A stretch of 64,000 nucleotides of DNA. Origin: Cyanidioschyzon merolae. Its lineage: Eukaryota. The stretch is taken from assembly GCA_000091205.1 (NCBI GenBank), contig AP006489.2; one strand, 5' to 3'. Each line of letters starts with the position of its first letter. Within the stretch, counting starts at the first letter, position 1. The notes below the pieces were generated by a model. The model worked only from the letters and a program-made list of their open reading frames with translations. It did no database searches and was not told the origin of the DNA. Shown here one piece after another: positions 6,693 to 53,142 of the stretch. Position numbers and translations under genes: made by a program.

Positions 6693-8303
6693 CGATGACT
6701 TTTGAAGTACATGGAACGTATAGCCATGTTTGATTTTGTTTGTTTTTCTGGCAGGTATGCAACGAAAGGAATGCGTTTCGCAGACTGGGGAAAGGTCGGC
6801 AAGAGGCTCGATGGCGCCACTACTGGCTAGCGAAGAGAGGCCTTCGCATCAGAAGCAGCACAGAGTGCCTCCCTGGGGTCCGAGTGCACGAGCCACCTTT
6901 TGCGTCCGTTCGATATAGACCGCAAATATCAGACCAAGGCTCATGATCGCATCGTAGACTCTTCTGCATGGAGCTTTACGACCACCACCGTAGTGAGCAG
7001 CGGCAGATATCTGCGACCAATACGAAGCATTCGAGCAACACCGCAAAGCGCACTGGCGAGATACCTTGCTGTTAACCGAGAGGAAACGGGAAGACGTGTT
7101 TGCGAGGACGTCAAAGACCGGACGGAATATCAATCTGTATGCACATTGCGCAGCATCTGGACCAGCGTCTACCAAAGAGACTCATTCGCACCCGTTCAGC
7201 CCAGATGAAGACAACGTCTTCGCGATGGTGGTGTTCGTGCATCCCGAATCCAGGTGCATCGAAGCACTCGCCGTACCTGTAGATCAAGAGCACGGAGCCA
7301 GCGACCCAGGAAGAAACCAGATGAAGCTGCTCGATCTCCGGGGATTCTCTCTGGTAGGCAGCTGGGAATGATCGGCACCAGAGGGTATACCAGAAAATGG
7401 AATGCTGTTATCAGCACCAATCGCGACGCTCCGAGCTCTGCATCCAGCAGCGGGCGATGCTTGCGTCCGTTTCATTCAGAGCGTGCCAAAAACGTCCAAA
7501 CAGTTGATGCACGCGATACTCAGCGGGAATTCGGGACACCGCACCGGAGTCGCCGACAGTTTCGGCCGTATGGAGGCAACAAGCGCGCAAGTGTCGGGTT
7601 CTTCACTGATTTCGAACAGAAAATGACGAGAGGTTTGCGTCGTTTCGCGATAGCCTTCGGCGCTGGGCTTGAAGTTGCGCACACGCCCTGAACTCCTGCG
7701 CTCCGTCGACGAAAGCCGGCAGTGCGCACGGGAATCTGCGCTATACGATTCCCATCGGTGACTGAATCCCGGGCGACATCGATGCATCACGAGCGTGGGT
7801 GCTTGCTGCGACACGAATAGAAACAATCGTATGAAACAGCGTCGGATGCACGCCATGGTGTCCAGAAGGCTGAGCGGACGTCAGTTGGCGAGGCAATCGA
7901 AAAGCATTGCCCAGCTCGTGTGTGATGCCACCGGCTATCATGCACGCGAGCTCTCTCTCTCTCTGTGACGACTCGAACGCCTCCATTATTCACTGGGTAT
8001 GACCAGTGCTTCGAGAGCGTCCAGCGGCCTTGTGTCGAGCGAACGTTCCCGAAAATCGTTTCGTAATCAGCCTGGGCATCTTGCTGAAAAGCTGCAGCCT
8101 TGCGTCCAGAAACACAATGCATCAGTGACCAGGAGAACGCGCACTGGATGCTCACCCCGCAGGAACACACCGCTGTGCTTCGGGTGAGCAATCCATCAAG
8201 GCTGCAGCGACGTGCACCCATCCACCGGTAACGGTATTCCTCAACAGTATTTGAGCGATCATGGGGTTCCACGAATCAACTGTAGAGCGTATATCGCACA
8301 GCG
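6693..8303. repeat. Inverted repeat 1, arm A (~1.6 kb). It is a near-identical reverse complement of 12950-14551.
   Basis: Every ORF-track entry in 6730-8505 has a mirror-image twin on the opposite strand in 12674-14520 that differs by 0-1 aa; for example 7066..7371(+) equals 13879..14184(-). I located the boundaries by reverse-complement comparison: outer end ~6693 (..gatgacttttgaagtacatgg), inner end ~8303 (..gtagagcgtatatcgcac). Confidence 0.85.
7951..7964. repeat. (CT)7 microsatellite inside IR1 arm A. The arm B copy (13284-13299) is one dinucleotide longer.
   Basis: Arm A reads gcgag(ct)7gtgacg. Arm B reads cgtcacac(ag)7ctcgc, i.e. 16 nt versus 14 nt. This 2-nt difference explains why the mirrored ORFs of the two arms diverge after ...RVVT(E/Q)RER. 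Confidence 0.8.
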
Positions 8304-12910: not shown

Positions 12911-12947
12911 GCAGCCTGCTGCCGTCGTGGTATCGACGGCAGGCTGC
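12911..12947. other. Imperfect palindrome/hairpin (about 14-17 bp stem, 5-nt loop) directly abutting the inner boundary of IR1 arm B
   Basis: gcagcctgctgccgtcg tggta cgacggcaggctgc: the left arm is the reverse complement of the right arm apart from a 3-nt (cag) bulge. Arm B begins at ~12950. Confidence 0.6.
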
Positions 12948-12949
12948 GG

Positions 12950-14551
12950 TGCGATATACGCACTACAGTTGATTCGTGGAACCCCATGATCGCTCAAATA
13001 CTGTTGAGGAATACCGTTACCGGTGGATGGGTGCACGTCGCTGCAGCCTTGATGGATTGCTCACCCGAAGCACAGCGGTGTGTTCCTGCGGGGTGAGCAT
13101 CCAGTGCGCGTTCTCCTGGTCACTGATGCATTGTGTTTCTGGACGCAAGTCTGCAGCTTTTCAGCAAGATGCCCAGGCTGATTACGAAACGATTTTCGGG
13201 AACGTTCGCTCGACACAAGGCCGCTGGACGCTCTCGAAGCACTGGTCATACCCAGTGAATAATGGAGGCGTTCGAGTCGTCACACAGAGAGAGAGAGAGC
13301 TCGCGTGCATGATAGCCGGTGGCATCACACACGAGCTGGGCAATGCTTTTCGATTGCCTCGCCAACTGACGTCCGCTCAGCCTTCTGGACACCATGGCGT
13401 GCATCCGACGCTGTTTCATACGATTGTTTCTATTCGTGTCGCAGCAAGCACCCACGCTCGTGATGCATCGATGTCGCCCGGGATTCAGTCACCGATGGGA
13501 ATCGTATAGCGCCGATTCCCGTGCGCACTGCCGGCTTTCGTCGACGGAGCGCAGGAGTTCAGGGCGTGTGCGCAACTTCAAGCCCAGCGCCGAAGGCTAT
13601 CGCGAAACGACGCAAACCTCTCGTCATTTTCTGTTCGAAATCAGTGAAGAACCCGACACTTGCGCGCTTGTTGCCTCCATACGGCCGAAACTGTCGGCGA
13701 CTCCGGTGCGGTGTCCCGAATTCCCGCTGAGTATCGCGTGCATCAACTGTTTGGGCGTTTTTGGCACGCTCTGAATGAAACGGACGCAAGCATCGCCCGC
13801 TGCTGGATGCAGAGCTCGGAGCGTCGCGATTGGTGCTGATAACAGCATTCCATTTTCTGGTATACCCTCTGGTGCCGATCATTCCCAGCTGCCTACCAGA
13901 GAGAATCCCCGGAGATCGAGCAGCTTCATCTGGTTTCTTCCTGGGTCGCTGGCTCCGTGCTCTTGATCTACAGGTACGGCGAGTGCTTCGATGCACCTGG
14001 ATTCGGGATGCACGAACACCACCATCGCGAAGACGTTGTCTTCATCTGGGCTGAACGGGTGCGAATGAGTCTCTTTGGTAGACGCTGGTCCAGATGCTGC
14101 GCAATGTGCATACAGATTGATATTCCGTCCGGTCTTTGACGTCCTCGCAAACACGTCTTCCCGTTTCCTCTCGGTTAACAGCAAGGTGTCTCGCCAGTGC
14201 GCTTTGCGGTGTTGCTCGAATGCTTCGTATTGGTCGCAGATATCTGCCGCTGCTCACTACGGTGGTGGTCGTAAAGCTCCATGCAGAAGAGTCTACGATG
14301 CGATCATGAGCCTTGGTCTGATATTTGCGGTCTCTATCGAACGGACGCAAAAGGTGGCTCGTGCACTCGGACCCCAGGGAGGCACTCTGTGCTGCTTCTG
14401 ATGCGAAGGCCTCTCTTCGCTAGCCAGTAGTGGCGCCATCGAGCCTCTTGGCGACCTTTCCCCAGTCTGCGAAACGCATTCCTTTCGTTGCATACCTGCC
14501 AGAAAAACAAACAAAATCAAACATGGCTATACGTTCCATGTACTTCAAAAA
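12950..14551. repeat. Inverted repeat 1, arm B (reverse complement of 6693-8303)
   Basis: Same mirrored-ORF evidence as arm A. Inner boundary ~12950 (gtgcgatatacgcactacag), outer boundary ~14551 (..cttcaaaaagtcatcg|gactg). Confidence 0.85.
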
Positions 14552-22852: not shown

Positions 22853-23119
22853 TCACTGTACGGATGGAGCACCACCTGCCGCTGGCATGGGTTGGCCCTC
22901 CTGCAACAGCTCTCCAATACGCTGTACGGCGCCCATGTACTTGAAAACGCAGCGATCCACACAGACACCCTCACCAGTTTGCAACTCGCCGTCGTGATAC
23001 CGCGTCACGCACTTGCGGAAGCATGAATCCGTCATTTTTTGAAACAGGTCTGCGTAAAAGCTCATTTCCCTCCGAGCCAAGTCCACGGGGTTTACCCCTG
23101 CAGCAAGTGCACTAGCCAT
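22853..23119 (-). CDS. small Tim (Tim9/10/13 family, twin CX3C) mitochondrial intermembrane-space chaperone
   Basis: The 88-aa product MASALAAGVNPVDLARREMSFYADLFQKMTDSCFRKCVTRYHDGELQTGEGVCVDRCVFKYMG... has the C-x3-C ... C-x3-C spacing typical of small Tims. ATG at 23119 (cat on the plus strand). It lies 31 nt beyond the end of element copy A, in frame with the element ORF. Confidence 0.7.
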   Translation of the reverse strand: MASALAAGVNPVDLARREMSFYADLFQKMTDSCFRKCVTRYHDGELQTGEGVCVDRCVFKYMGAVQRIGELLQEGQPMPAAGGAPSVQ

Positions 23120-23149
23120 TGACACAGCCAACAACAAACGCCTTTGAAA

Positions 23150-25068
23150 AGAAAAACGCTGCCGCCAGTGGTGCACAGTAGTGGCGGCGAACGCGCCCCG
23201 GACAAGCAGTCTCCAGCTGACGGGCAGACGCATCCCAGCCTTGCTGGGCAGGCCACCCACCACTGGTTTCAACTTTTTCTCATATAGTTGGACTTTGAGA
23301 GGTTGTCCAACAAAGTTCTCTCTTGTCTGCTGTGGAGGTCTTTTCTCAATCGCCGCGCATCTCCTTATATTGACGGCGGCGTTAAAGTCTCGGTTCACAA
23401 ACCGCATACGTTTCTTGCCGTCGTTGGTTGTACTTACGAATGCGAGTAGCCCTCGCACTTTTGTTCTCCTCTCCATTTGCACCTCCGGCAGCGGTCCGTA
23501 CTTTGCTATGTCTTCAGGACTCCCCTGGCGCTTTTCCATCTCGACCCTTTGAAGTGTACACTCCAGCTCATGGTGTGTATCGGACGTTCGGAACTCATCT
23601 ATCCGTATCGTAACAAAACGCCGTGCATTCTCCTTGTACGTTCTTGTCGTTGGAGCTGGCGGAGTCCCTTTGTGGGTCTTCCAGCGCCCCACTCCGTATG
23701 CTACTACGAGCCTCTGACTTTCAAGCTCTCTCAAGGCACTCAACTCATTGAAAAATTCGCGAACGCCCGCTGCTGACCACAATACGGATTCATACGCAAA
23801 CGAGCCCACCGGGGCTTTGTATACTCTTCCCACAGCGCCTCCCAAGGAGCAACATGAACATCCATGCATTTCAGAAAAGCTTCAAAGTCCGCTGCGCGGC
23901 TCGTCACCTTGCTCATAGCTTCCAGGTGCTTCTTCAATCCAGCATTCTCTATCTCGATTTTCTTCCTTGCATTCATTATACCGGATTCTCGGTAGTATCT
24001 CGCTCTCGAGAACCTCAAACGACGCATGTCGTTCTGACGTAATTTACTGTGCGTACCGTATTCCGCACGCTGGGGTACTGCGATGGTTATGATATTTGTG
24101 TTTCCGGGGTCCGCGCCAACGACAAAGTCGTTATTCTCTACCTCTTGCGTCGCAGGATCCTCCTCTTTGTTTTCCTCATGCTTCGCCGCGCCAACGACAA
24201 GGTCGTTATCCTCTACCTCCTGCGTCGCAGGACCCGCCTTCTCCTTGTCTTCATCCTTCGTGACGGGCGCAGCCGAGGGAGGGACTGGCCGGGCTCTCTT
24301 CAACCGCCGATAGTGTATACACAAGGCTACTCCATCGGTTTCAATCATCAAAGTGAACAATTTTTGCTTGCTCACTCTCAAACGTTTAAAATTGAAGATA
24401 TTCTTCCAGTACGTCTCCCGGTTCTCGCCGGCGAAGTCCTCCCTGCTAACGTTGAACTCCGAACAGATCTCCTTCATGATGCCATGAAGGATTCCGGAGT
24501 CGATAGTCCCAAAATGTGACTTGATATTGGACAATGGGACCACGTTGAAGCGCTTCCCCATTAGGAAATCCTTCCGTCTCTCCCACTCTTCATTTGTCTC
24601 TTCACGCAGCATCACCGCTGCCTTGGCTTCGAGCTCTCGGTCCAGAAACACGAAATAGCACAGAATGAGGCGATCGTATCTTTCCTGATCTTTGCTCAAC
24701 TCTGATACCTTGTCTGTTGGATTCGGTAGCCCCAGTACCGCACGATGCTCTTGTATAACCGTACGGATCGCAGAAGCTTCATTCGTGCTCACTTTTGACG
24801 CCTTCTTGTCGACAAATTCGACCTCATCTTCACGCTTGCGATCTTTCATGATGCCATTGATAATCGTCCATTTTCCATTGCGAGAGATGCGCGGGTAGAG
24901 TGCAACCACGGCGCGTATCATGAAACGTTCGAGGTCCATTGTCAAATGGTTCTTCAGGTCCGTGAGGTACTTCTTCGCCCCGTAGGTGTACATATCCCGG
25001 TCACCCTTGTAGCGAGTACCCTCGAAGCTGTAAAAGGGGTGTTTTTCGTGGAGGGTATGCACTAGCAC
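23150..25068 (-). pseudogene. TnpB/Fanzor-like RuvC nuclease, disrupted copy
   Basis: Same protein as copy B, but the ATG of copy B is AGG here (tgatgg versus tgaggg), leaving no in-frame ATG. A 1-bp deletion in a T-run (gcgaatttttcaatgag versus gcgaattttttcaatgag in copy B, near 23756) splits the reading frame into ORFs 23740..25068 and 22853..23869. Confidence 0.65.
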
Positions 25069-26301
25069 ATTTTCCCTCCGCGTGTTCCCTGCGCCAACCC
25101 TCAGGTGACGAATAAAGGTTGCCGAAAACTCCCTCTGGAATCTCGACTGTTTCCATGTGCGTCACATCGCGATACATCTCCCTCGCCAAATGCATCAGTC
25201 CTGACGACGCCCTGGCAATACGCTTGGAGTACGACTAGGCACGTTTTTTGATGGCGCCTCGCAACTTTTCCCTGTACGAATCCTTGATATGTCCAAGAAG
25301 ACCGGCTTTCACTACCATTTCGTCGTACAGGTGTCTTTCTTGCCGCCTTCGACGTAGGGCCTCCCCTCTTCGGTCCTTCTTATCTTCCTTTTTTTCCGGA
25401 CTCGGCACTGTTTTTTGTTTTTTTTCTCTGGCAGCCGGCGACCCTGGGCCTCCAGGATCGTCGACTTGCTTTTTCATAACTTTCCTTTTTTAGATTTTTT
25501 TGAAAAAGAACGTTCTTTGAACGCTTCTGTTATATACTGCGAAAAAACGCTTGAATACACTTGTTTGAGGTTTGAAACACAATTGAAATCAAAACTATAC
25601 TTGGATATGAAGCTCACGAAAATCTGACTTTTACAGCTGAACGACACGCAACTGATCAAGATCGCGTTTCCCTTCAACGGCGGCGGCATGCGCGTCGTGC
25701 CAGTTGACTACTGCCAGCTCTGCCAGATGCACTCACTGACCGCGATGCGTGCACCGCGCGAGACGCTACACGGATCGATGAAGGACACGTGTCCGACGTC
25801 GCATTAGCACATGCGTGTTCTCACCGACGCACTGCAGCGGAAATCAGGTGTCCTAGATCGGAAACTCACGTAGAGTGATCCCCTGCGCTAGGCTCTGTCG
25901 CTGGTGCCGAAACTACTGCCCATCGCCGTACTACCCTAGCATACAAGGGGATGCTGGGGCCTGGCACAAAACTCAGCGATGACTCCAGCACACGCGTAGC
26001 CATCGTAGCATCTTGCGCTTTTGTGGGTAAGGCATGCATCAACCTAGTCATTAGGAGTTTCGATAGTTGTATTTATCGTACACAAACTAGGTGTAGTCGT
26101 GTACCCGAGTACGAATAATATACGTTTATTCCCGATTCTTGTTATGCATGCCGCACGGACGCTGGAATGAGGAACAGATTTGAATTCTGCTTTTATCCGG
26201 CGTCATCGGCGGGCACTGATGACAGTTCAGTATATTGCCATGCTGCCGTCGTTGTCTAACTTATGGTGTCTGCTTCGTTCGAAGGATCCGGTGATCTTGG
26301 T
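23150..26301 (-). mobile_element. TnpB/Fanzor-like nuclease element, copy A (inverted relative to copy B; decayed)
   Basis: The whole region is mirrored at 36619-39787 on the opposite strand; protein-level differences are ~10/650. Outer (3') boundary: identity with copy B ends after ..cagcgtttttcttt at 23150. Inner (5') boundary: high identity ends ~26301 (gcgatgcctc..), then ~70% similarity continues for ~140 bp more. A 1.2-kb AT-richer leader sits upstream of the ORF. Confidence 0.7.
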
Positions 26302-26614
26302 AGAGGCATCGCACACATGTAGCGTGCATATGTAGCACCGCGTTCGACCGACGCATTTCGCCCGGAACGATCGAGGCACCAGCAGCACAAGGCGCTGCAC
26401 CGACCTGAAGGACGGGCGGAGAGGCCCGGCAAGAGTAAATATTGTATAAAGTAGCATATTTAGGAATCTATATGATCCATTTTGCATACGCTGCACGAAA
26501 CGCTTGTCGCACTTGCGAACGCTTTGCAAGCGCTATCCGACAGCGCGTTTCAAGGGCGAACGCGTGCGTCTCGACGTAAAACCCACTGTGTGGAGGCGCT
26601 AGGAGCGCTCTAGA

Positions 26615-34896: not shown

Positions 34897-36618
34897 GGTA
34901 GTGTCAGTAGACAACTGCGTTGCCAGTGCTGCCGCGTTGCTGGCGACACGCCCGCCATTGCGTTGCGCGCTATGCCCACATGGCGTTAAGATCGGTGTGC
35001 TCTCGTCTTTCCACTCAAGTCTGTGACACTCCTGCTGCGCTTTAGAGCAGGGGATCGAAATCATGAAGCAATGTACAGTATAGAGCGTAGACGAATTGCG
35101 TGTAGGGTATATTTTTTTAATGAACAGTTCAAGAAAGACCGCATTCCTCATTCGGTTGAGTCATAACCCAGTACTCAGATGAATGACGAGCACAGAAAGA
35201 GGATATGCGCTCCGCGCCAAAAATCGATACGCTCAAAGACTGGGTGCGGTCAATGGCAGAAAACGAGTCGTCGATCACCTTGCAGAATGCAAACGTGTCG
35301 ATAGTAGCCGCGACGGTAGTCTCTGTTTCTCAAGTGCGTGTTCGTGTGCTCTGAAAGACTGGGATACAGTCTCAAAAAAGGAGTCCTAGTTCACGCACGA
35401 ACAGCTTTGACCGAAATCGCAACTACAACAAAGTTCCTCGAGAGTTGCCATCGATATGAAGCACAGCAACGTCGATTTCTTTTTCCAGACGATGAGAGTT
35501 TCTTCAGATGAAACGGTTGGAATGTATTTGGGTATTCGCGGAGAAGGAGCCATTTTAATATACGATGGAGCTCGAAGAGAAGGCTAGTACAACGGCACCA
35601 ACCACTTTGTCGGATCATAGCAGACTTTTCCCTTGACGTCTAATAATACCCTTCTATGGGACAACGTGGTATTTCACCATTCCTCTTCCGTTTGAGCATT
35701 TGCAGATTATATCGGGCAAGAGCTGCTTTTCATTCTTCCGTAAACTCCGCGGTTCAACCCCAACGAATGAAAGTTTCATATCGTGAAACGAAAGGATCGC
35801 TCCGCTGGGCGCATTGCTGGAGCGCTCAGCAAACTATGCCACACACAGAGACATATTTTTGTCTTTCTTCCACAAGTCTTTCACCATCCAAGCAGGTCCT
35901 CACCTTAAGACATAAACAAGTGCATTCATTCTCGAGAAATAAAAAAACCAAGGCATGAGCTCGTGTGCAGTCTTCAGAAGATCGAGACGAAGAGCAGGCA
36001 ACGGAGTTCTTCGATGATAGACAAGCACGGAGAGGCGACAGAGCACCAAATGGCATAGAGGGCGCGACTTCAAGGAATACTCGCTTTGGTGAGTCTAAGC
36101 AGTGGCAATAACCCCTTGAGTTCGAGAACCGAGAATTTAATGCAGCTATTTATATCAGGAAATGTGCGGTGCCTAGGACGAGACCCGCGGAGCTGATACG
36201 AGACAAGTTTGTGGAGCAGTCTCTCGAGGTCGAATCGTAAAAGGAGAAACTGAAGCCGATCGCAGGATCGGTCGAAAAAGGCTGGGAGTCGTCTGTACTT
36301 AGGTATTAACTTACCCTACGTAGTTGCGCGACCTGTTTGTTTCACTGGCATGTATGCTCTAGCGATAGCCCGTACGTTCCGCAGCAATATTACTGGGAGT
36401 GAAAAAACAGCAGGCAGTCATCGAACGTTCGGGAGCGTATGAATGGCAGGGTACGGTTAAGCTCAAGGTTCGGCGCTTGCACAACTCCATAACGGCGAGG
36501 GTCGTGCCAGTGATCCGACAGGGTACACCAGCTGGCAGTATGTGATTTTGTCATGCGCCCCGATCCTGCCAGGCGAAATGCAAGGGTCAGCCGTCAAGGT
36601 ACATTTAGACGCAGCATG

Positions 36619-39600
36619 CGCGATGCCTCTACCAAGATCACCGGATCCGTCGAACGAAGCAGACACCATAAGTTAGACAACGACGGCAGCATGGCAATAT
36701 ACTGAACTGTCATCAGTGCCCGCCGATGACGCCGGATAAAAGCAGAATTCAAATCTGTTCCTCATTCCAGCGTCCGTGCGGCATGCATAACAAGAATCGG
36801 GAATAAACGTATATTATTCGTACTCGGGTACACGACTACACCTACTTTGTGTACGATAAATACAACTATCGAAACTCCTAATGACTAGGTTGATGCATGC
36901 CTTACCCACAAAAGCGCAAGATGCTACGATGGCTACGCGTGTGCTGGAGTCATCGCTGAGTTTTGTGCCAGGCCCCAGCATCCCCTTGTATGCTAGGGTA
37001 GTACGGCGATGGGCAGTAGTTTCGGCACCAGCGACAGAGCCGAGCGCAGGAGATCACTCTACGTGAGTTTCCGATCTAGGACACCTGATTTCCGATGCAG
37101 TGCGTCGGTGAGAACACGCATGTGCTAATGCGACGTCGGACACGTGTCCTTCATCGATCCGTGTAGCGTCTCGCGCGGTGCACGCATCGCGGTCAGTGAG
37201 TGCACCTGGCAGAGCTGGCAGTAGTCAACTGGCACGACGCGCACGCCGCCGCCGTTGAAGGGAAACGCGATCTTGATCAGTTGCGTGTCGTTCAGCTGTA
37301 AAAGTCAGATTTTCGTGAGCTTCATATCCAAGTATAGTTTTGATTTCAATTGTGTTTCAAACCTCAAACAAGTGTATTCAAGCGTTTTTTCGCAGTATAT
37401 AACAGAAGCGTTCAAAGAACGTTCTTTTTCAAAAAAAGTCTAAAAAAGGAAAGTTATGAAAAAGCAAGTCGACGATCCTGGAGGCCCAGGGTCGCCGGCT
37501 GCCAGAGAAAAAAAACAAAAAACAGTGCCGAGTCCGGAAAAAAAGGAAGATAAGAAGGACCGAAGAGGGGAGGCCCTACGTCGAAGGCGGCAAGAAAGAC
37601 ACCTGTACGACGAAATGGTAGTGAAAGCCGGTCTTCTTGGACATATCAAGGATTCGTACAGGGAAAAGTTGCGAGGCGCCATCAAAAAACGTGCCTAGTC
37701 GTACTCCAAGCGTATTGCCAGGGCGTCGTCAGGACTGATGCATTTGGCGAGGGAGATGTATCGCGATGTGACGCACATGGAAACAGTCGAGATTCCAGAG
37801 GGAGTTTTCGGCAACCTTTATTCGACACCTGATGGTTGGCGCAGGGAACACGCGGAGGGAAAATGTGCTAGTGCATGCCCTCCACGAAAAACACCCCTTT
37901 TACAGCTTCGAGGGTACTCGCTACAAGGGTGACCGGGATATGTACACCTACGGGGCGAAGAAGTACCTCACGAACCTGAAGAACCATCTGACAATGGACC
38001 TCGAACGTTTCATGATACGCGCCGTGGTTGCACTCTACCCGCGCATCTCTCGCAATGGAAAATGGACGATTATCAATGGCATCATGAAAGATCGCAAGCG
38101 TGAAGATGAGGTCGAATTTGTCGACAAGAAGGCGTCAAAAGTGAGCACGAATGAAGCTTCTGCGATCCGTACGGTTATACAAGAGCATCGTGCGGTACTG
38201 GGGCTACCGAATCCAACAGACAAGGTATCAGAGTTGAGCAAAGATCAGGAAAGATACGATCGCCTCATTCTGTGCTATTTCGTGTTTCTGGACCGAGAGC
38301 TCGAAGGCAAGGCAGCGGTGATGCTGCGTGAAGAGACAAATGAAGAGTGGGAGAGACGGAAGGATTTCCTAATGGGGAAGCGCTTCAACGTAGTCCCATT
38401 GTCCAATATCAAGTCACATTTTGGGACTATCGACTCCGGAATCCTTCATGGCATCATGAAGGAGATCTGTTCGGAGTTCAACGTTAGCAGGGAGGACTTC
38501 GCCGGCGAGAACCGGGAGACGTACTGGAAGAATATCTTCAATTTTAAACGTCTGAGAGTGAGCAAGCAAAACTTGTTCACTTTGATGATTGAAACCGATG
38601 GAGTAGCCTTGTGTATACACTATCGGCGGTTGAAGAGAGCCCGGCCAGTCCCTCCCTCGGCTGCGCCCGTCACGAAGGATGAAGACAAGGAGAAGGCGGG
38701 TCCTGCGACGCAGGAGGTAGAGGATAACGACCTTGTCGTTGGCGCAGCGAAGCATGAGGAAAACAAAGAGGAGGATCCTGCGACGCAAGAGGTAGAGAAT
38801 AACGACTTTGTCGTTGGCGCGGACCCCGGAAACACAAATATCATAACCATCGCAGTACCCCAGCGTGCGGAATACGGTACGCACAGTAAATTACGTCAGA
38901 ACGACATGCGTCGTTTGAGGTTCTCGAGAGCGAGATACTACCGAGAATCCGGTATAATGAATGCAAGGAAGAAAATCGAGATAGAGAATGCTGGATTGAA
39001 GAAGCACCTGGAAGCTATGAGCAAGGTGACGAGCCGCGCAGCGGACTTTGAAGCTTTTCTGAAATGCATGGATGTTCATGTTGCTCCTTGGGAGGCGCTG
39101 TGGGAAGAGTATACAAAGCCCCGGTGGGCTCGTTTGCGTATGAATCCGTATTGTGGTAAGCAGCGGGCGTTCGCGAATTTTTTCAATGAGTTGAGTGCCT
39201 TGAAGGAGCATGAAAGTCAGAGGCTCGTAGTAGCATACGGAGCGGGGCGCTGGAAGACCCACAAAGGGACTCCGCCAGCTCCAACGACAAGAACGTACAA
39301 GGAGAATGCACGGCGTTTTGTTACGATACGGATAGATGAGTTCCGAACGTCCGATACACACCGTGAGCTGGAGTGTACACTTCAAAGGGTCGAGATGGAA
39401 AAGCGCCAGGGGAGTCCTGAAGACATAGCAAAGTACGGACCGCTGCCGGAGGTGCAAATGGAGAGGAGAACAAAAGTGCGAGGGCTACTCGCATTCGTAA
39501 GTACAACCAACGACGGCAAGAAACGTATGCGGTTTGTGAACCAAGACTTTAACGCCGCCGTCAATATACGGAGATGCGCGGCGATTGAGAAAAGACCTCC

Positions 39601-39787
39601 ACAGCAGACAAGAGAGAACTTTGTTGGACAACCTCTCAAAGTCCAACTATATGAGAAAAAGTTGAAACCAGTGGTGGGTGGCCTGCCCAGCAAGGCTGGG
39701 ATGCGTCTGCCCGTCAGCTGGAGACTGCTTGTCCGGGGCGCGTTCGCCGCCACTACTGTGCACCACTGGCGGCAGCGTTTTTCTTTA
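36619..39787 (+). mobile_element. TnpB/Fanzor-like nuclease element, copy B (intact ORF)
   Basis: Reverse-complement twin of 23150-26301. 5' boundary ~36619, with diverged homology back to ~36470. 3' boundary 39787, immediately after ..caccactggcggcagcgtttttcttt. A GC-rich imperfect hairpin (gccgcca N14 tggcggc, 39746-39773) lies 15-40 nt inside the 3' end. The two copies share no terminal inverted repeat. Confidence 0.7.
37832..39787 (+). CDS. TnpB/Fanzor-like RNA-guided-nuclease-family protein (RuvC-I/II/III, degenerate zinc finger), ~651 aa to the element end. There is no stop codon; the ORF continues in frame into the aminopeptidase gene downstream.
   Basis: RuvC-I: ..[20 protein letters not shown] (D331). 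TS/zinc-finger region: [23 protein letters not shown]. RuvC-III: [19 protein letters not shown] (D572), the classic DxNAAxNI motif. The order and spacing match TnpB/Cas12/Fanzor. The ATG at 37832 is preceded by an in-frame TGA. The ORF track lists the read-through as 37832..41404. Confidence 0.65.
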
Positions 39788-39829
39788 GACAGGCTTTTGT
39801 TTTCGCTGCCGTCGTCCTCCAGAAGCAAA

Positions 39830-41404
39830 ATGAACGCTGAACCAGGTGTTCCCAACTCGGACCACAACCGCACACGACAAATGCCTGGTGGGAACACAAC
39901 CGAGCAGGACGCACTCGCCGATCGCTTGCTTCGCTTTCTCGATGCGTCACCGTCTCCGTACCACGCAGTCGAGACCGCAAAACTGCTTCTAGAAACAGCT
40001 GGCTATACTGAGCTTCGGGAGGACTGTTCCTGGTTGGGGCGAGTTCATCCCGGAGGACGCTATTATACGACACGCAACGAGTCAACAATCGTTGCCTTTC
40101 GAGTGGGGCGAGCGTTTCACGTCGACGCGGTGAACGGCGGTGAGCTCCGACTCGTTGGCGCGCACACCGACTCGCCGTGCTTTCGAGTCAAACCACGAAG
40201 TCGCGTGAGCGACGCAAATTATGAAAAAGTTGCAGTCGAGTGCTACGGGGGCGGCCTCTGGTACACCTGGTTCGATCGCGACCTCAAGTGTGCTGGGCGG
40301 GTCATCTGGCGCTGTGCGTCCCCAACGGACCCGGCACAGGGCACCAGCCGATCGACCAGTTGGCAGTGCACACTCGTTCATGTACGGGAACCCATTTTGA
40401 GAATTCCATCATTGGCAATCCACTTAGATCGAGAAGTGAATCAGGGCTTCGCCCCGAACCGACAAACGCATTTGGTGCCGGTTGCCGCCACCGCATTGAA
40501 CAGAACAAAGTTGCCACAGTGTCAAGAGCGCCATGCCACTGCACTTACGGGAGCAGTTATTCACACTCTTCAACAGGACATCATGCCCGTTAAAGAAGAT
40601 CCGATGAGCATCACGCGTGATGCAGGCGGTATCGTTATTCATGACTTTGACCTCTGTTTGGCAGACGCACAGCCAGCGAGCATTGGTGGCGTTCAGCGGG
40701 AGTTCATCTTCGCTTCGCGTCTAGACAACCTGTTTTCCTGTTTCGCGGCACTCGAAGCGCTCCTCTCCCTGGATTCCGAGGCTGGGGTGGAAAGCGGTGC
40801 CGAGTCGGCGGTCTGCATGGTTGCGCTTTTCGACCATGAGGAGTGCGGTAGCGGTAGTGCGCAAGGCGCTGCGTCTCCGCTTGTCAGCGACCTGATTCGA
40901 CGTGTTCTAGCGTGTTTATGGACGGGGAAAACGGATGCAGGCGCTTTCGAGGACGCTGTTCAATACACGATCCGCCGCTCATTCTTGATCAGTCTCGATA
41001 TGGCGCATGCTGTCCATCCAAACTACGCGGAAAAGCATGAGAGTGGCCATCAGCCGCTCTTAGGCCATGGCCCTGTTCTGAAAGTCAACGCAAACCAGCG
41101 GTATGCAACTGACGGGTGGAGCGCTCATCTCCTCCGCGCTGTTGCCGAATGCTGTGATTCACCTATACCGCTGCAGGAGTACGTTGTGCGGAACGATATG
41201 CCTTGCGGCAGCACCATTGGACCCATTGTAGCTGCTGGTACCGGCGTACGAACTGTTGATGTAGGTGCACCAAGTCTTTCAATGCACTCGATTCGGGAAA
41301 TGGCGCATGTACGAGATCTATGGTACACCGTCAAGCTTTTGCAAGCGTTCATGCGATGTTTCGGTGAGGTCCGGGCGTCGCATAATACAGCGTGCGTGAC
41401 GTAG
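39830..41404 (+). CDS. DNPEP: aspartyl aminopeptidase (M18 family)
   Basis: ..LLRFLDASPSPYHAVETAKLLLETAGYTELREDCSWL..TRNESTIVAF..LRLVGAHTDSPCFRVKPRS..YGGGLWYTWFDRDL..LRIPSLAIHLDREVN..MAHAVHPNYAEKHE..NDMPCGSTIGPI..LSMHSIREMA aligns along its whole length with human DNPEP. Start taken as the ATG at 39830 (MNAEPG); the ATG at 39881 is an alternative. It begins 43 nt after the element end, in the same frame as the element ORF. Confidence 0.85.
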   Translation: MNAEPGVPNSDHNRTRQMPGGNTTEQDALADRLLRFLDASPSPYHAVETAKLLLETAGYTELREDCSWLGRVHPGGRYYTTRNESTIVAFRVGRAFHVDAVNGGELRLVGAHTDSPCFRVKPRSRVSDANYEKVAVECYGGGLWYTWFDRDLKCAGRVIWRCASPTDPAQGTSRSTSWQCTLVHVREPILRIPSLAIHLDREVNQGFAPNRQTHLVPVAATALNRTKLPQCQERHATALTGAVIHTLQQDIMPVKEDPMSITRDAGGIVIHDFDLCLADAQPASIGGVQREFIFASRLDNLFSCFAALEALLSLDSEAGVESGAESAVCMVALFDHEECGSGSAQGAASPLVSDLIRRVLACLWTGKTDAGAFEDAVQYTIRRSFLISLDMAHAVHPNYAEKHESGHQPLLGHGPVLKVNANQRYATDGWSAHLLRAVAECCDSPIPLQEYVVRNDMPCGSTIGPIVAAGTGVRTVDVGAPSLSMHSIREMAHVRDLWYTVKLLQAFMRCFGEVRASHNTACVT

Positions 41405-51549: not shown

Positions 51550-51800
51550 GGCTCGGTCGCTACGACTCGCTACGAGCCAAGCCAGATGCACAAGCTGACT
51601 CTCTGCACACACGGAAACCTGCGAGCCTTAGAGAAAAACGCCTAGAAGCTAACCGCTTCTCGCGCGAAGCCAAGTCCAACTTGCCGTGAACAAACCTACC
51701 TTTCCCGATCTCCAAGGGTAGACGCGTCTCAGGAAGTTGCTTTCAGACCGTTCAGCGTTGGCAGAAGCATACCTGGTGTCCAAGAGCAGGCTGTAGCAGG

Positions 51801-52385
51801 ACGTACCAGATCGATCGATGAATCGCTGCGCGGGAGGCGTCTGACCTGCAAGATCAATCGAAAAGCAACTTGTTCTGGATATTTATGTATAAATAGGATT
51901 TTACTGGATGATCCTGACGTACCAGATCGATCGATGAATCGCTGCGCGGGAGGCGTCTGACCTGCAAGATCAATAGGCAAGCAACTTGTTCTGGATATTT
52001 ATGTATAAATAGGATTTTACTGGATGATCCTGACGTTACGATCGATCGATGAATCGCTGTGCGGGAGGCGTCTGACCTGCAAGATCAATAGGAAAGCAAC
52101 TTGTTCTGGATATTTATGTATAAATAGGATTTTACTGGATGATCCTGACGTTACGATCGATCGATGAATCGCTGTGCGGGAGGCGTCTGACCTGCAAGAT
52201 CAATCGAAAAGCAACTTGTTCTGGATATTTATGTATAAATAGGATTTTACTGGATGATCCTGACGTTACGATCGATCGATGAATCGCTGTGCGGGAGGCG
52301 TCTGACCTGCAAGATCAATAGGCAAGCAACTTGTTCTGGATATTTATGTATAAATAGGATTTTACTGGATGATCCTGACGTTACG
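51801..52385. repeat. Minisatellite: 5 tandem copies of a ~116-bp unit, each containing TATAAATAGG
   Basis: The unit acgt(a/t)ac(c)agatcgatcgatgaatcgctg(c/t)gcgggaggcgtctgacctgcaagatcaat(c/a)g(a/g)aaagcaacttgttctggatatttatgtataaataggattttactggatgatcctg starts at 51801, 51917, 52033, 52148 and 52263. The array ends with a truncated sixth start at ~52378. Confidence 0.9.
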
Positions 52386-53142
52386 GAAGCATCCGAGAAC
52401 GCACGTCATTTTGCGGCTGTATATCCGGACGTGTTTCTTCAAACATCCTGCGAGGGTGCGAGCGTTGCTAGTCGTCATCGTGAAACCCACGTCAGTCCCG
52501 ATGCAGATGCTCCATCCGTTCAAGGTTTCCTCTTCAAAGTTATCCAGAGGAAAAGAGACTTTATCCAGCGAGTCCAGATCTGGATATCCACTCGATACCG
52601 CTGGACGCGCCGCCGTTCTTGTCGCGTGCAGGCAGAACGGCTCTGCGATACCCATTCATAAACTTGCTTCAAGAGCTGGATGCCGAAGCGTGCGCGTGAA
52701 CAAGGTCGCACCGTATGCAACGCTGGGGAAACTGCGACTTGAGTTCGCACCAATTGTTCCAATTGTCCTTCGCATGCGCAATTCGTTGTGCCGGACTCCT
52801 TTTTACACAAGTGCATGACGACGGGCGTTACCGTGCCTCAGCTTGTTTCCCTATCCAGCCAGTCTAGTTCAGCCGCGCTCTCCACTTGGTTCAACCTGGA
52901 AACTGCATTGCAATGGCAACGTAAAGCTTCGAAGCACTAACCAACACCCTGCATACTCAAGGCATGTATCGGCGAACGCACCGAACCTGCTTCTTAGCAA
53001 GCAACCTAGCCGCTCAAAGTCGACGGCAAGCGGTGCGCTGGCTGCACACGGGCCAGTCGGCGCTAGACTGGTGTCCGCGGACGCGCTCGTTTATCGCAAA
53101 CGAGAGTCGCGCTGACGCTTGCTGGCTTCGACCTGGTTCTCG

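Follow-up and report, generated by a model that had tools for sequence, protein, structure and literature searches.

To our knowledge, the omegaRNAs characterised for Fanzor1 and TnpB nucleases are all encoded at the 3' end of the nuclease open reading frame (ORF) and reach the right end of the element. The omegaRNA of GtFz1 overlaps 17 codons (PMC10432273), and in the solved Fanzor1 (Fz1) complexes the first stem-loop (SL1) always has 7 bp, while SpuFz1 and PpFz1 carry a single variable second stem-loop (SL2) before the guide (PMC11423790). For Cyanidioschyzon merolae, a red alga, the Fanzor1 family CMe-1A was described by Bao & Jurka in 2013 as ~150 copies of ~3 kb with ~80% identity to the consensus, without terminal inverted repeats (TIRs), with target-site duplications (TSDs) left undetermined, and with a 5' part of 635 bp that is another repeat, TE-N2_CMe (PMC3627910). 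Their account is older than the discovery of omegaRNAs and mentions no 3' module, hairpin, solo tail or placement with respect to host genes; in the literature searched, no work that treats Cyanidioschyzon together with Fanzor appears to deal with an omegaRNA of CMe-1A. We analysed a window of 64,000 nucleotides (contig AP006489.2; "the window" means this whole stretch) of nuclear DNA from chromosome 7 of C. merolae 10D, whose host proteins CMG032C, the RanGAP-like protein and aspartyl aminopeptidase BAM79567 are identical to those of this strain. Two inverted copies in the window, A and B, belong to the already known, largely decayed family CMe-1A. They match the published element in species, length (~3 kb), the Fanzor1 ORF and copy identity (~80%), and both have a ~600-nt 5' part common to another repeat and no TIRs; the assignment follows the published description (PMC3627910). 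We find that CMe-1A ends in a discrete, conserved module that can fold into two stem-loops on the coding strand, which we regard as a somewhat probable scaffold of a Fanzor omegaRNA in active members, with a guide that would be derived from the flank past SL2.

The module could be delimited from the family itself. A search for family relatives gave 357 related stretches of 59-83% identity; 83 related loci (cited by L numbers) were fetched and 51 distinct 3' ends were aligned. About 60 nt of non-coding sequence are conserved after the stop position, and the whole module of ~110 nt starts ~35 nt before the family stop position and ends 60-72 nt after it. It is kept on the coding strand in at least 80 tails and is reused in solo copies, as an nhmmer profile of the tail identified three tails without Fanzor coding DNA (L016:943-1021, L039:390-466 and L046:1575-1652). 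The homology of the solo copies to the Fanzor copies begins at ~39700 of copy B, with a different repeat, common to all three, lying upstream, and it is this start that delimits a discrete module at 39700-39808 (Table 1). The solo tails form the 3' end of another repeat; their GGCGTT is followed by 15-22 variable nt and then by GGGCTCGATGTAYGGG..., leading into the TE-N2-like 5' module of full CMe-1A. They resemble the 'ghost' omegaRNA loci of Spizellomyces punctatus (PMC10432273) in having a 3' module without a Fanzor gene, and differ in that each of the three solo tails in the fetched DNA ends another repeat. By eye, the 5' modules of A and B are also preceded by degenerate tail-like sequence. 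An Rfam search gave no match.

The earlier note on this DNA, made from the letters alone, had placed an omegaRNA-like scaffold with a GC-rich hairpin across 39400-39810, including the last few hundred nucleotides of the ORF. A conserved two-stem module at the 3' end holds, and the hairpin is its SL1; the extent does not, as the Fanzor coding sequence takes up ~335 of the 410 nt (39400-39736) and needs no RNA to explain its conservation. The conservation of third codon positions shows no rise towards the 3' end of the ORF. A scaffold of ~60-100 nt (from 39700 or 39737 to 39797) is more likely than one spanning the last few hundred nt of the ORF.

Table 1. Features of the two CMe-1A copies, with coordinates in the window.
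Feature	Position	Strand	Remarks
Copy B block	36617..39786	+	99.1% identical to copy A; inside the CMe-1A Fanzor1 element, short of its true ends
Copy A block	23148..26315	-	inverted partner of the copy B block
Fanzor1 pseudogene of copy B	37456..39736	+	TAG 37696-37698, frameshift ~37800-37832, CGG 39734-39736 at the stop; RuvC motifs present
Conserved 3' module, copy B (candidate omegaRNA scaffold region)	39700..39808	+	5' limit from solo copies; 3' limit from conservation
Conserved 3' module, copy A	23126..23234	-	nhmmer E 3e-20; covariance model 88 bits
SL1	39746..39773 (B); 23161-23188 (A)	+ in B	7-bp stem, 14-nt loop
SL2, terminal hairpin	39774..39797 (B); 23137-23160 (A)	+ in B	8-11 bp in the family
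G/T-rich stretch	39798..39808 (B); 23126-23136 (A)	+ in B	11 nt; weakly conserved family-wide, 0.2-0.6 bit/position
First truly variable flank, copy B	39809..39829	+	ends at the M18 aminopeptidase ATG, 39830

When single sequences are folded to minimum free energy, A, L055 and many further copies show SL1 and SL2 separated by a linker of 0-1 nt. SL1, which was confirmed by reading where the earlier note had seen it and again in copy A, is a perfect stem of GCCGCCA (39746-39752) with TGGCGGC (39767-39773), and its loop carries the near-invariant motif CACTACTGT (39751-39759). The family consensus of SL2 is AACGTTTTTC-TTTT-GAAAGRCGTT or GTCGTTCGA-CTT-TCGAACGGC, and its arms differ between subfamilies: CGTTTTTC-TTTT-GAAAGRCG in one, CGTTCGA-CTT-TCGAACG with the register shifted by 3 in another, CGTTCTA/TAGAACG in L009 and CTTTCGA/TTGAAAG in L019 and L071. 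The tails of L023, L053 and L081 are unrelated in sequence, yet they form long hairpins of -23 to -36 kcal/mol. SL2 is more stable on the coding strand through G-U pairs (mean -9.4 vs -5.8 kcal/mol; z -1.70 vs -0.96), and it is intact in copy A.

The pairs were counted against 500 shuffles. With the MAFFT alignment, the double changes observed in SL1, whose second pair is seen as C-G, U-A, A-U and U-G, were reached by 13 shuffles; for SL2 the fraction of paired cells was reached by none and the double changes by four. A covariance model built from the two-stem structure matched 52 tails, all on the coding strand of the element. In its alignment 74.5% of the cells pair, 30 cells are double changes (15.5 +/- 4.5 in shuffles) and the covariation score is 0.113 (0.093 in shuffles), with neither value reached by any of the 500 shuffles and with all slid controls lower. 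On the right ends of further copies, whose structure the earlier note had proposed to examine, double changes are above every shuffle in 52 tails, while the fold z-scores are weak and SL1 covaries at essentially one pair. Taken together, the putative two-stem structure has moderate covariation support and weak thermodynamic support. Other pairings fared worse: RNAalifold found next to no consensus structure (-6.6 kcal/mol) when run on all 364 columns of the alignment. With RIBOSUM scoring it proposed a long-range helix of AGTAGTRGGTGG in the coding part with CCGCCACTACT, which was rejected because the pair counts contained not one double change and did not exceed the shuffles. An outer helix of CGTCAG (39711-39716) with CTGGCG, proposed by analogy with relatives, is compensatory in L002, L025 and L074 and is overall no better than shuffles.

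The ORF of copies A and B is Fanzor1, of the TnpB superfamily. The motifs DPGNTN, IDEFRTS and N(R/Q)DFNAAVNI supply the RuvC-like catalytic residues D, E and D in canonical order in both copies; they are kept in relatives at 25-76% identity and are invariant or nearly so in 13 relatives. Searches with the Fanzor ORF against Pfam, PDB sequences and PDB profiles gave no match. In a Foldseek search of the PDB with an AlphaFold model of low confidence (pLDDT, the predicted local distance difference test, 55.7), the seven best matches were all Fanzor1 (E 1e-9 to 3e-5, led by SpuFz at 1e-9 and followed by PpFz and GtFz), and ISDra2 TnpB was the next. Two lesions are common to A and B, an in-frame TAG at 37696, where the intact relative P0001 reads VD, and a frameshift near 37800-37832. 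The family stop column, which is TAG, TAA or TGA in 33 of 51 copies, reads CGG in A and B (39734-39736). As the stop codon is lost in both, the two Fanzor frames run into the downstream host genes, and the stop-less frame continues in frame into the host ORF, giving ORFs of 37832-41404 in B and 22853-23869 in A. A tandem duplication of 75 nt (window 38673-38822 and 24111-24260) lies in the Fanzor ORF, in the acidic linker before RuvC-I, and its copy number varies among loci from 2 to 4 units.

Upstream of the relatives with 25-42% identity (L084-L093) there is a DDE_3 (Tc1/mariner-IS630) transposase gene. One such element, seen in four independent insertions, ends sharply in ...TTCATGAGTA directly before TA, with TIR ends of ...GAGTATA, and in the Tc1/mariner-type relatives the stop is immediately followed by two stem-loops (z down to -6.7). 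The CMe-1A tails have no DDE transposase and no TIR or TA ends like those of L084-L093, and the covariance model found no CMe-1A-type tail in these relatives. CMe-1A appears to have lost the Tc1/mariner transposase and the inverted repeats that its relatives carry.

If CMe-1A behaves as other Fanzor elements do, the module would be transcribed in active members with or from the Fanzor gene, and the transcript would form the omegaRNA scaffold to which the Fanzor protein binds. By analogy with SpuFz1 and PpFz1, a guide of ~15-20 nt would then be read just beyond SL2, from ~39798-39809 in B and 23136-23125 in A, and in a Fanzor-like system we infer that the putative guide of B would lie within 39798-39829. 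Copies A and B, presumably homogenised by gene conversion or duplication, might at best supply RNA for a protein made elsewhere. The likeness to the omegaRNAs of SpuFz1 and PpFz1 (Saito et al. 2023, PMC10432273; Xu et al. 2024, PMC11423790) consists in two stem-loops, a short linker and a first stem of 7 bp. In contrast to them, the candidate CMe-1A scaffold resembles neither in sequence and lacks a 3' inverted repeat; the element is without TIR or TA ends, and the bases that follow SL2 are compositionally biased. The omegaRNA (right-end element RNA, reRNA) of the IS200/IS605 element ISDra2 likewise runs across the 3' end of the nuclease ORF into the right end, which also carries a subterminal DNA hairpin, and takes its guide from the flank. 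However, the ISDra2 scaffold overlaps the ORF more, and a TnpA and a target-adjacent motif (TAM) are known for ISDra2 and neither for CMe-1A.

Several observations weigh against the omegaRNA interpretation. The double changes of SL1 are almost all at one pair, ~25% of the cells in the covariance-model alignment are unpaired, that alignment is fitted to the model, and related sequences can beat shuffles without structure. The free energies of the A and B tails are no better than shuffled (z -0.1 to -1.1), the whole post-stop region has a mean z of ~ -1.2 on both strands, near the coding controls, and SL2 is degenerate in copy B. The conservation of the tail equals that of third codon positions (0.76-0.87 vs 0.77-0.88), and the conservation of the module could merely reflect the age of the family. 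Both window copies are pseudogenes and inactive relics, so neither supplies Fanzor protein itself. Past SL2, every copy is rich in G and T where a guide ought to vary freely, copy B can form an alternative long terminal hairpin (39767-39777 with 39803-39813), and no TAM or left-end target is definable as the left flank is too variable.

Some of these facts would also suit a tail with no function at A and B, in which the hairpins are chance features or relics of an old repeat under neutral decay, and shared ancestry alone gives the semblance of structure. The window contains 70 perfect GC-rich 7-bp hairpins with loops of 3-20 nt, against 33 +/- 9 when shuffled, or ~1 per 900 nt, and the z-scores of the A and B tails are weak, which leaves the GC hairpin unremarkable by itself. 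The weak fold z-scores, a tail no more conserved than third codon positions, the pseudogene state of A and B and copies only ~80% identical to the consensus (PMC3627910) point the same way. We consider this explanation unlikely, as SL2 is kept in different registers and sequences across subfamilies, the double changes lie above 500 of 500 shuffles and above all slid controls, the module is discrete and reused in solo copies, and some members have intact ORFs (P0001, 752 aa; PMC3627910).

The sequence past SL2 bears on both the guide and the DNA-level behaviour of the tail. The G/T-rich stretch can pair with the 3' arm of SL1 and the linker, and it represents either the end of the module or a preference for certain target sites; not until ~11 nt after GGCGTT does the sequence become truly variable. 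The flank strings quoted in the earlier note are correct, but those running from 39787 in B, and from the equivalent position in A, are for the most part the conserved 3' arm of SL2 and the family-wide G/T-rich stretch, and as proposed guides they start 11-22 nt too early. The extension of the hairpin into the G/T-rich stretch adds -7.0 kcal/mol, against -4.2 with random flank (P = 3e-6), at the level of the family only; a copy-specific pairing of each copy's own downstream 13 nt with the upstream arm was rejected, the own flank being no better than that of others (P = 0.96). As the post-SL2 bases are complementary to the 3' arm of SL1, the alternative hairpin competes with SL1, and together with the post-SL2 bias it makes a hairpin acting in DNA a serious rival, or possibly a coexisting function.

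The main rival interpretation would make the tail chiefly a DNA-level mobility signal, a single-strand subterminal hairpin marking the 3' end for the enzyme that copies or moves the element, as at the right ends of Helitron, IS91 and IS200/IS605. Besides the gain in free energy from the G/T-rich stretch, such a role would suit an element without TIRs or TSDs (PMC3627910) whose 3' end is conserved and whose 5' modules vary, and whose most consistent feature is a terminal hairpin of varying sequence. Three copies have perfect or near-perfect long palindromes, like fold-back products, and the module recurs in the solo tails in the way that termini are common to non-autonomous partners. With Helitrons in particular, CMe-1A has in common the absence of TIRs and TSDs and a hairpin, conserved in structure and variable in sequence, ~10 nt from the 3' end. 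However, CMe-1A has no transposase linked to it, of the HUH type or any other, and no RepHel gene was seen; the Helitron hallmarks 5'-TC and CTRR-3' were not seen at the ends by reading. The nearest relatives of CMe-1A in the Fanzor clade are Tc1/mariner-associated and use a DDE_3 transposase with TIRs and TA and no hairpin ends, and many of the stem pairs are G-T, which is weak in DNA. As the main function of the tail we therefore regard the DNA signal as doubtful; it is compatible with the omegaRNA interpretation because both roles coexist in TnpB elements.

The right edge of the near-identical block had also been taken for the end of the element. The 3.17 kb repeat has 28 differences between A and B over 36617-39786 (0.9%), and the near-perfect identity followed by an abrupt drop is real: the last 217 nt before 39786 have no A/B mismatch, and among the next 13 positions 5 differ and 8 match. 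Position 39786 is nevertheless not the right end, because the break falls within the loop of SL2 and the columns 39787-39797 are conserved like the rest of the tail (majority-base fraction 0.76 vs 0.53 further out in 51 copies). The conservation in the family runs on through CTTTnGAAAGGCGTT to 39797 and then weakly to ~39808. This motif was never found alone, as an empty site, in 586 kb, which assigns CTTTnGAAAGGCGTT to the element and not to a host target that it prefers. On the left side, A and B retain 62% similarity for ~50 nt beyond 36617, and the family homology at other loci begins at 36513-36567. As the homology of A and B passes both edges of the block, these edges are better explained by a conversion or duplication tract than as element ends, and the 99.1% block lies within two copies that are older and more diverged, most probably as a tract of gene conversion or partial duplication. 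That A and B bound a composite transposon is unlikely, with 10 kb of ordinary host genes (a RanGAP-like leucine-rich repeat protein and WD40) lying between them.

The orthologues of copy B in metagenome strains (L007, L008 and L045) have the same right flank, are 97-99% identical, and lose homology to the window upstream of 36557 (compared with window 36300-36557), which suggests a structural difference between strains beside the left side of the copy B element. A look-up through the host aminopeptidase had no empty site in another strain on record, and no orthologue of copy A was present among the fetched loci.

The proximity of the tails to host genes allows a further explanation, that the tail is ordinary expression sequence: it would either terminate the Fanzor mRNA or be its 3' untranslated region, or else serve the downstream host gene as promoter or 5' untranslated region. 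Of 35 independent copies, 18 have a same-strand ORF of at least 100 aa whose ATG lies no more than 120 nt from the tail, compared with 20% for random positions. In A, the ATG of a Tim10-like gene lies 17 nt past the tail, and in B that of the M18 aminopeptidase 32 nt past it; with the host ATGs so near, the Tim10-like and M18 genes would have to be transcribed from or through the element. The hairpin of the first subfamily overlaps U-runs (GCGUUUUUCUUUU), whereas that of the second (CGTTCGACTTTCG) has no U-run. A role as promoter leaves unexplained why stems are kept by different sequences, and the solo tails lie upstream of another repeat and not of genes. On this balance, expression alone is quite unlikely to account for the tail.

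With the omegaRNA interpretation in mind, it is also conceivable, though highly unlikely, that CMe-1A was amplified to ~150 copies without a transposase by means of its own Fanzor and omegaRNA, through an RNA-guided break beside a tail-like site and its repair by one-ended copying from the 3' module with variable end points. Such amplification would explain the invariant 3' module with 'fuzzy' 5' modules, the missing TIRs and TSDs, the weak similarity of the right flanks, and the order of solo tail, 15-22 variable nt (about the length of a guide or the cleavage distance) and next element. If true, the sites 1-110 nt upstream of co-oriented genes would reflect target choice or a selected outward promoter.

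The 5' part of the family is modular. In most copies homology starts at ~37184, with several unrelated modules upstream; the part at 36617-37184/37252 is common to a subset of copies only, and the TE-N2-like 5' module (36617-37184 in B and 25748-26315 in A) is likewise found only in a subset. At several loci (L005, L060, L038 and L077) two copies stand head to head. The window holds another inverted repeat pair of ~1.6 kb with 99-100% identity, unrelated to CMe-1A (6700-8302 and 12946-14550), and high-identity inverted duplicates may perhaps be more general in this region, possibly through conversion. A repeat finder gave a tandem array at 51800-52499 with 5-6 copies of 115-116-nt units that are 89-98% identical.

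The element family itself was already known; what is new here, if real, is the candidate RNA module of CMe-1A. Copies A and B are dead at both loci, and what had initially been put forward as their guides belongs to the element. The limits of the module (39700 to 39797-39808, with two stem-loops) show which RNA to seek and from what position a guide might begin. As a model red alga that is genetically tractable and whose genome is very small, C. merolae would, if its endogenous Fanzor1 family does have a defined guide-RNA module, provide a natural setting in which to study the roles that eukaryotic RNA-guided nucleases play for their elements.

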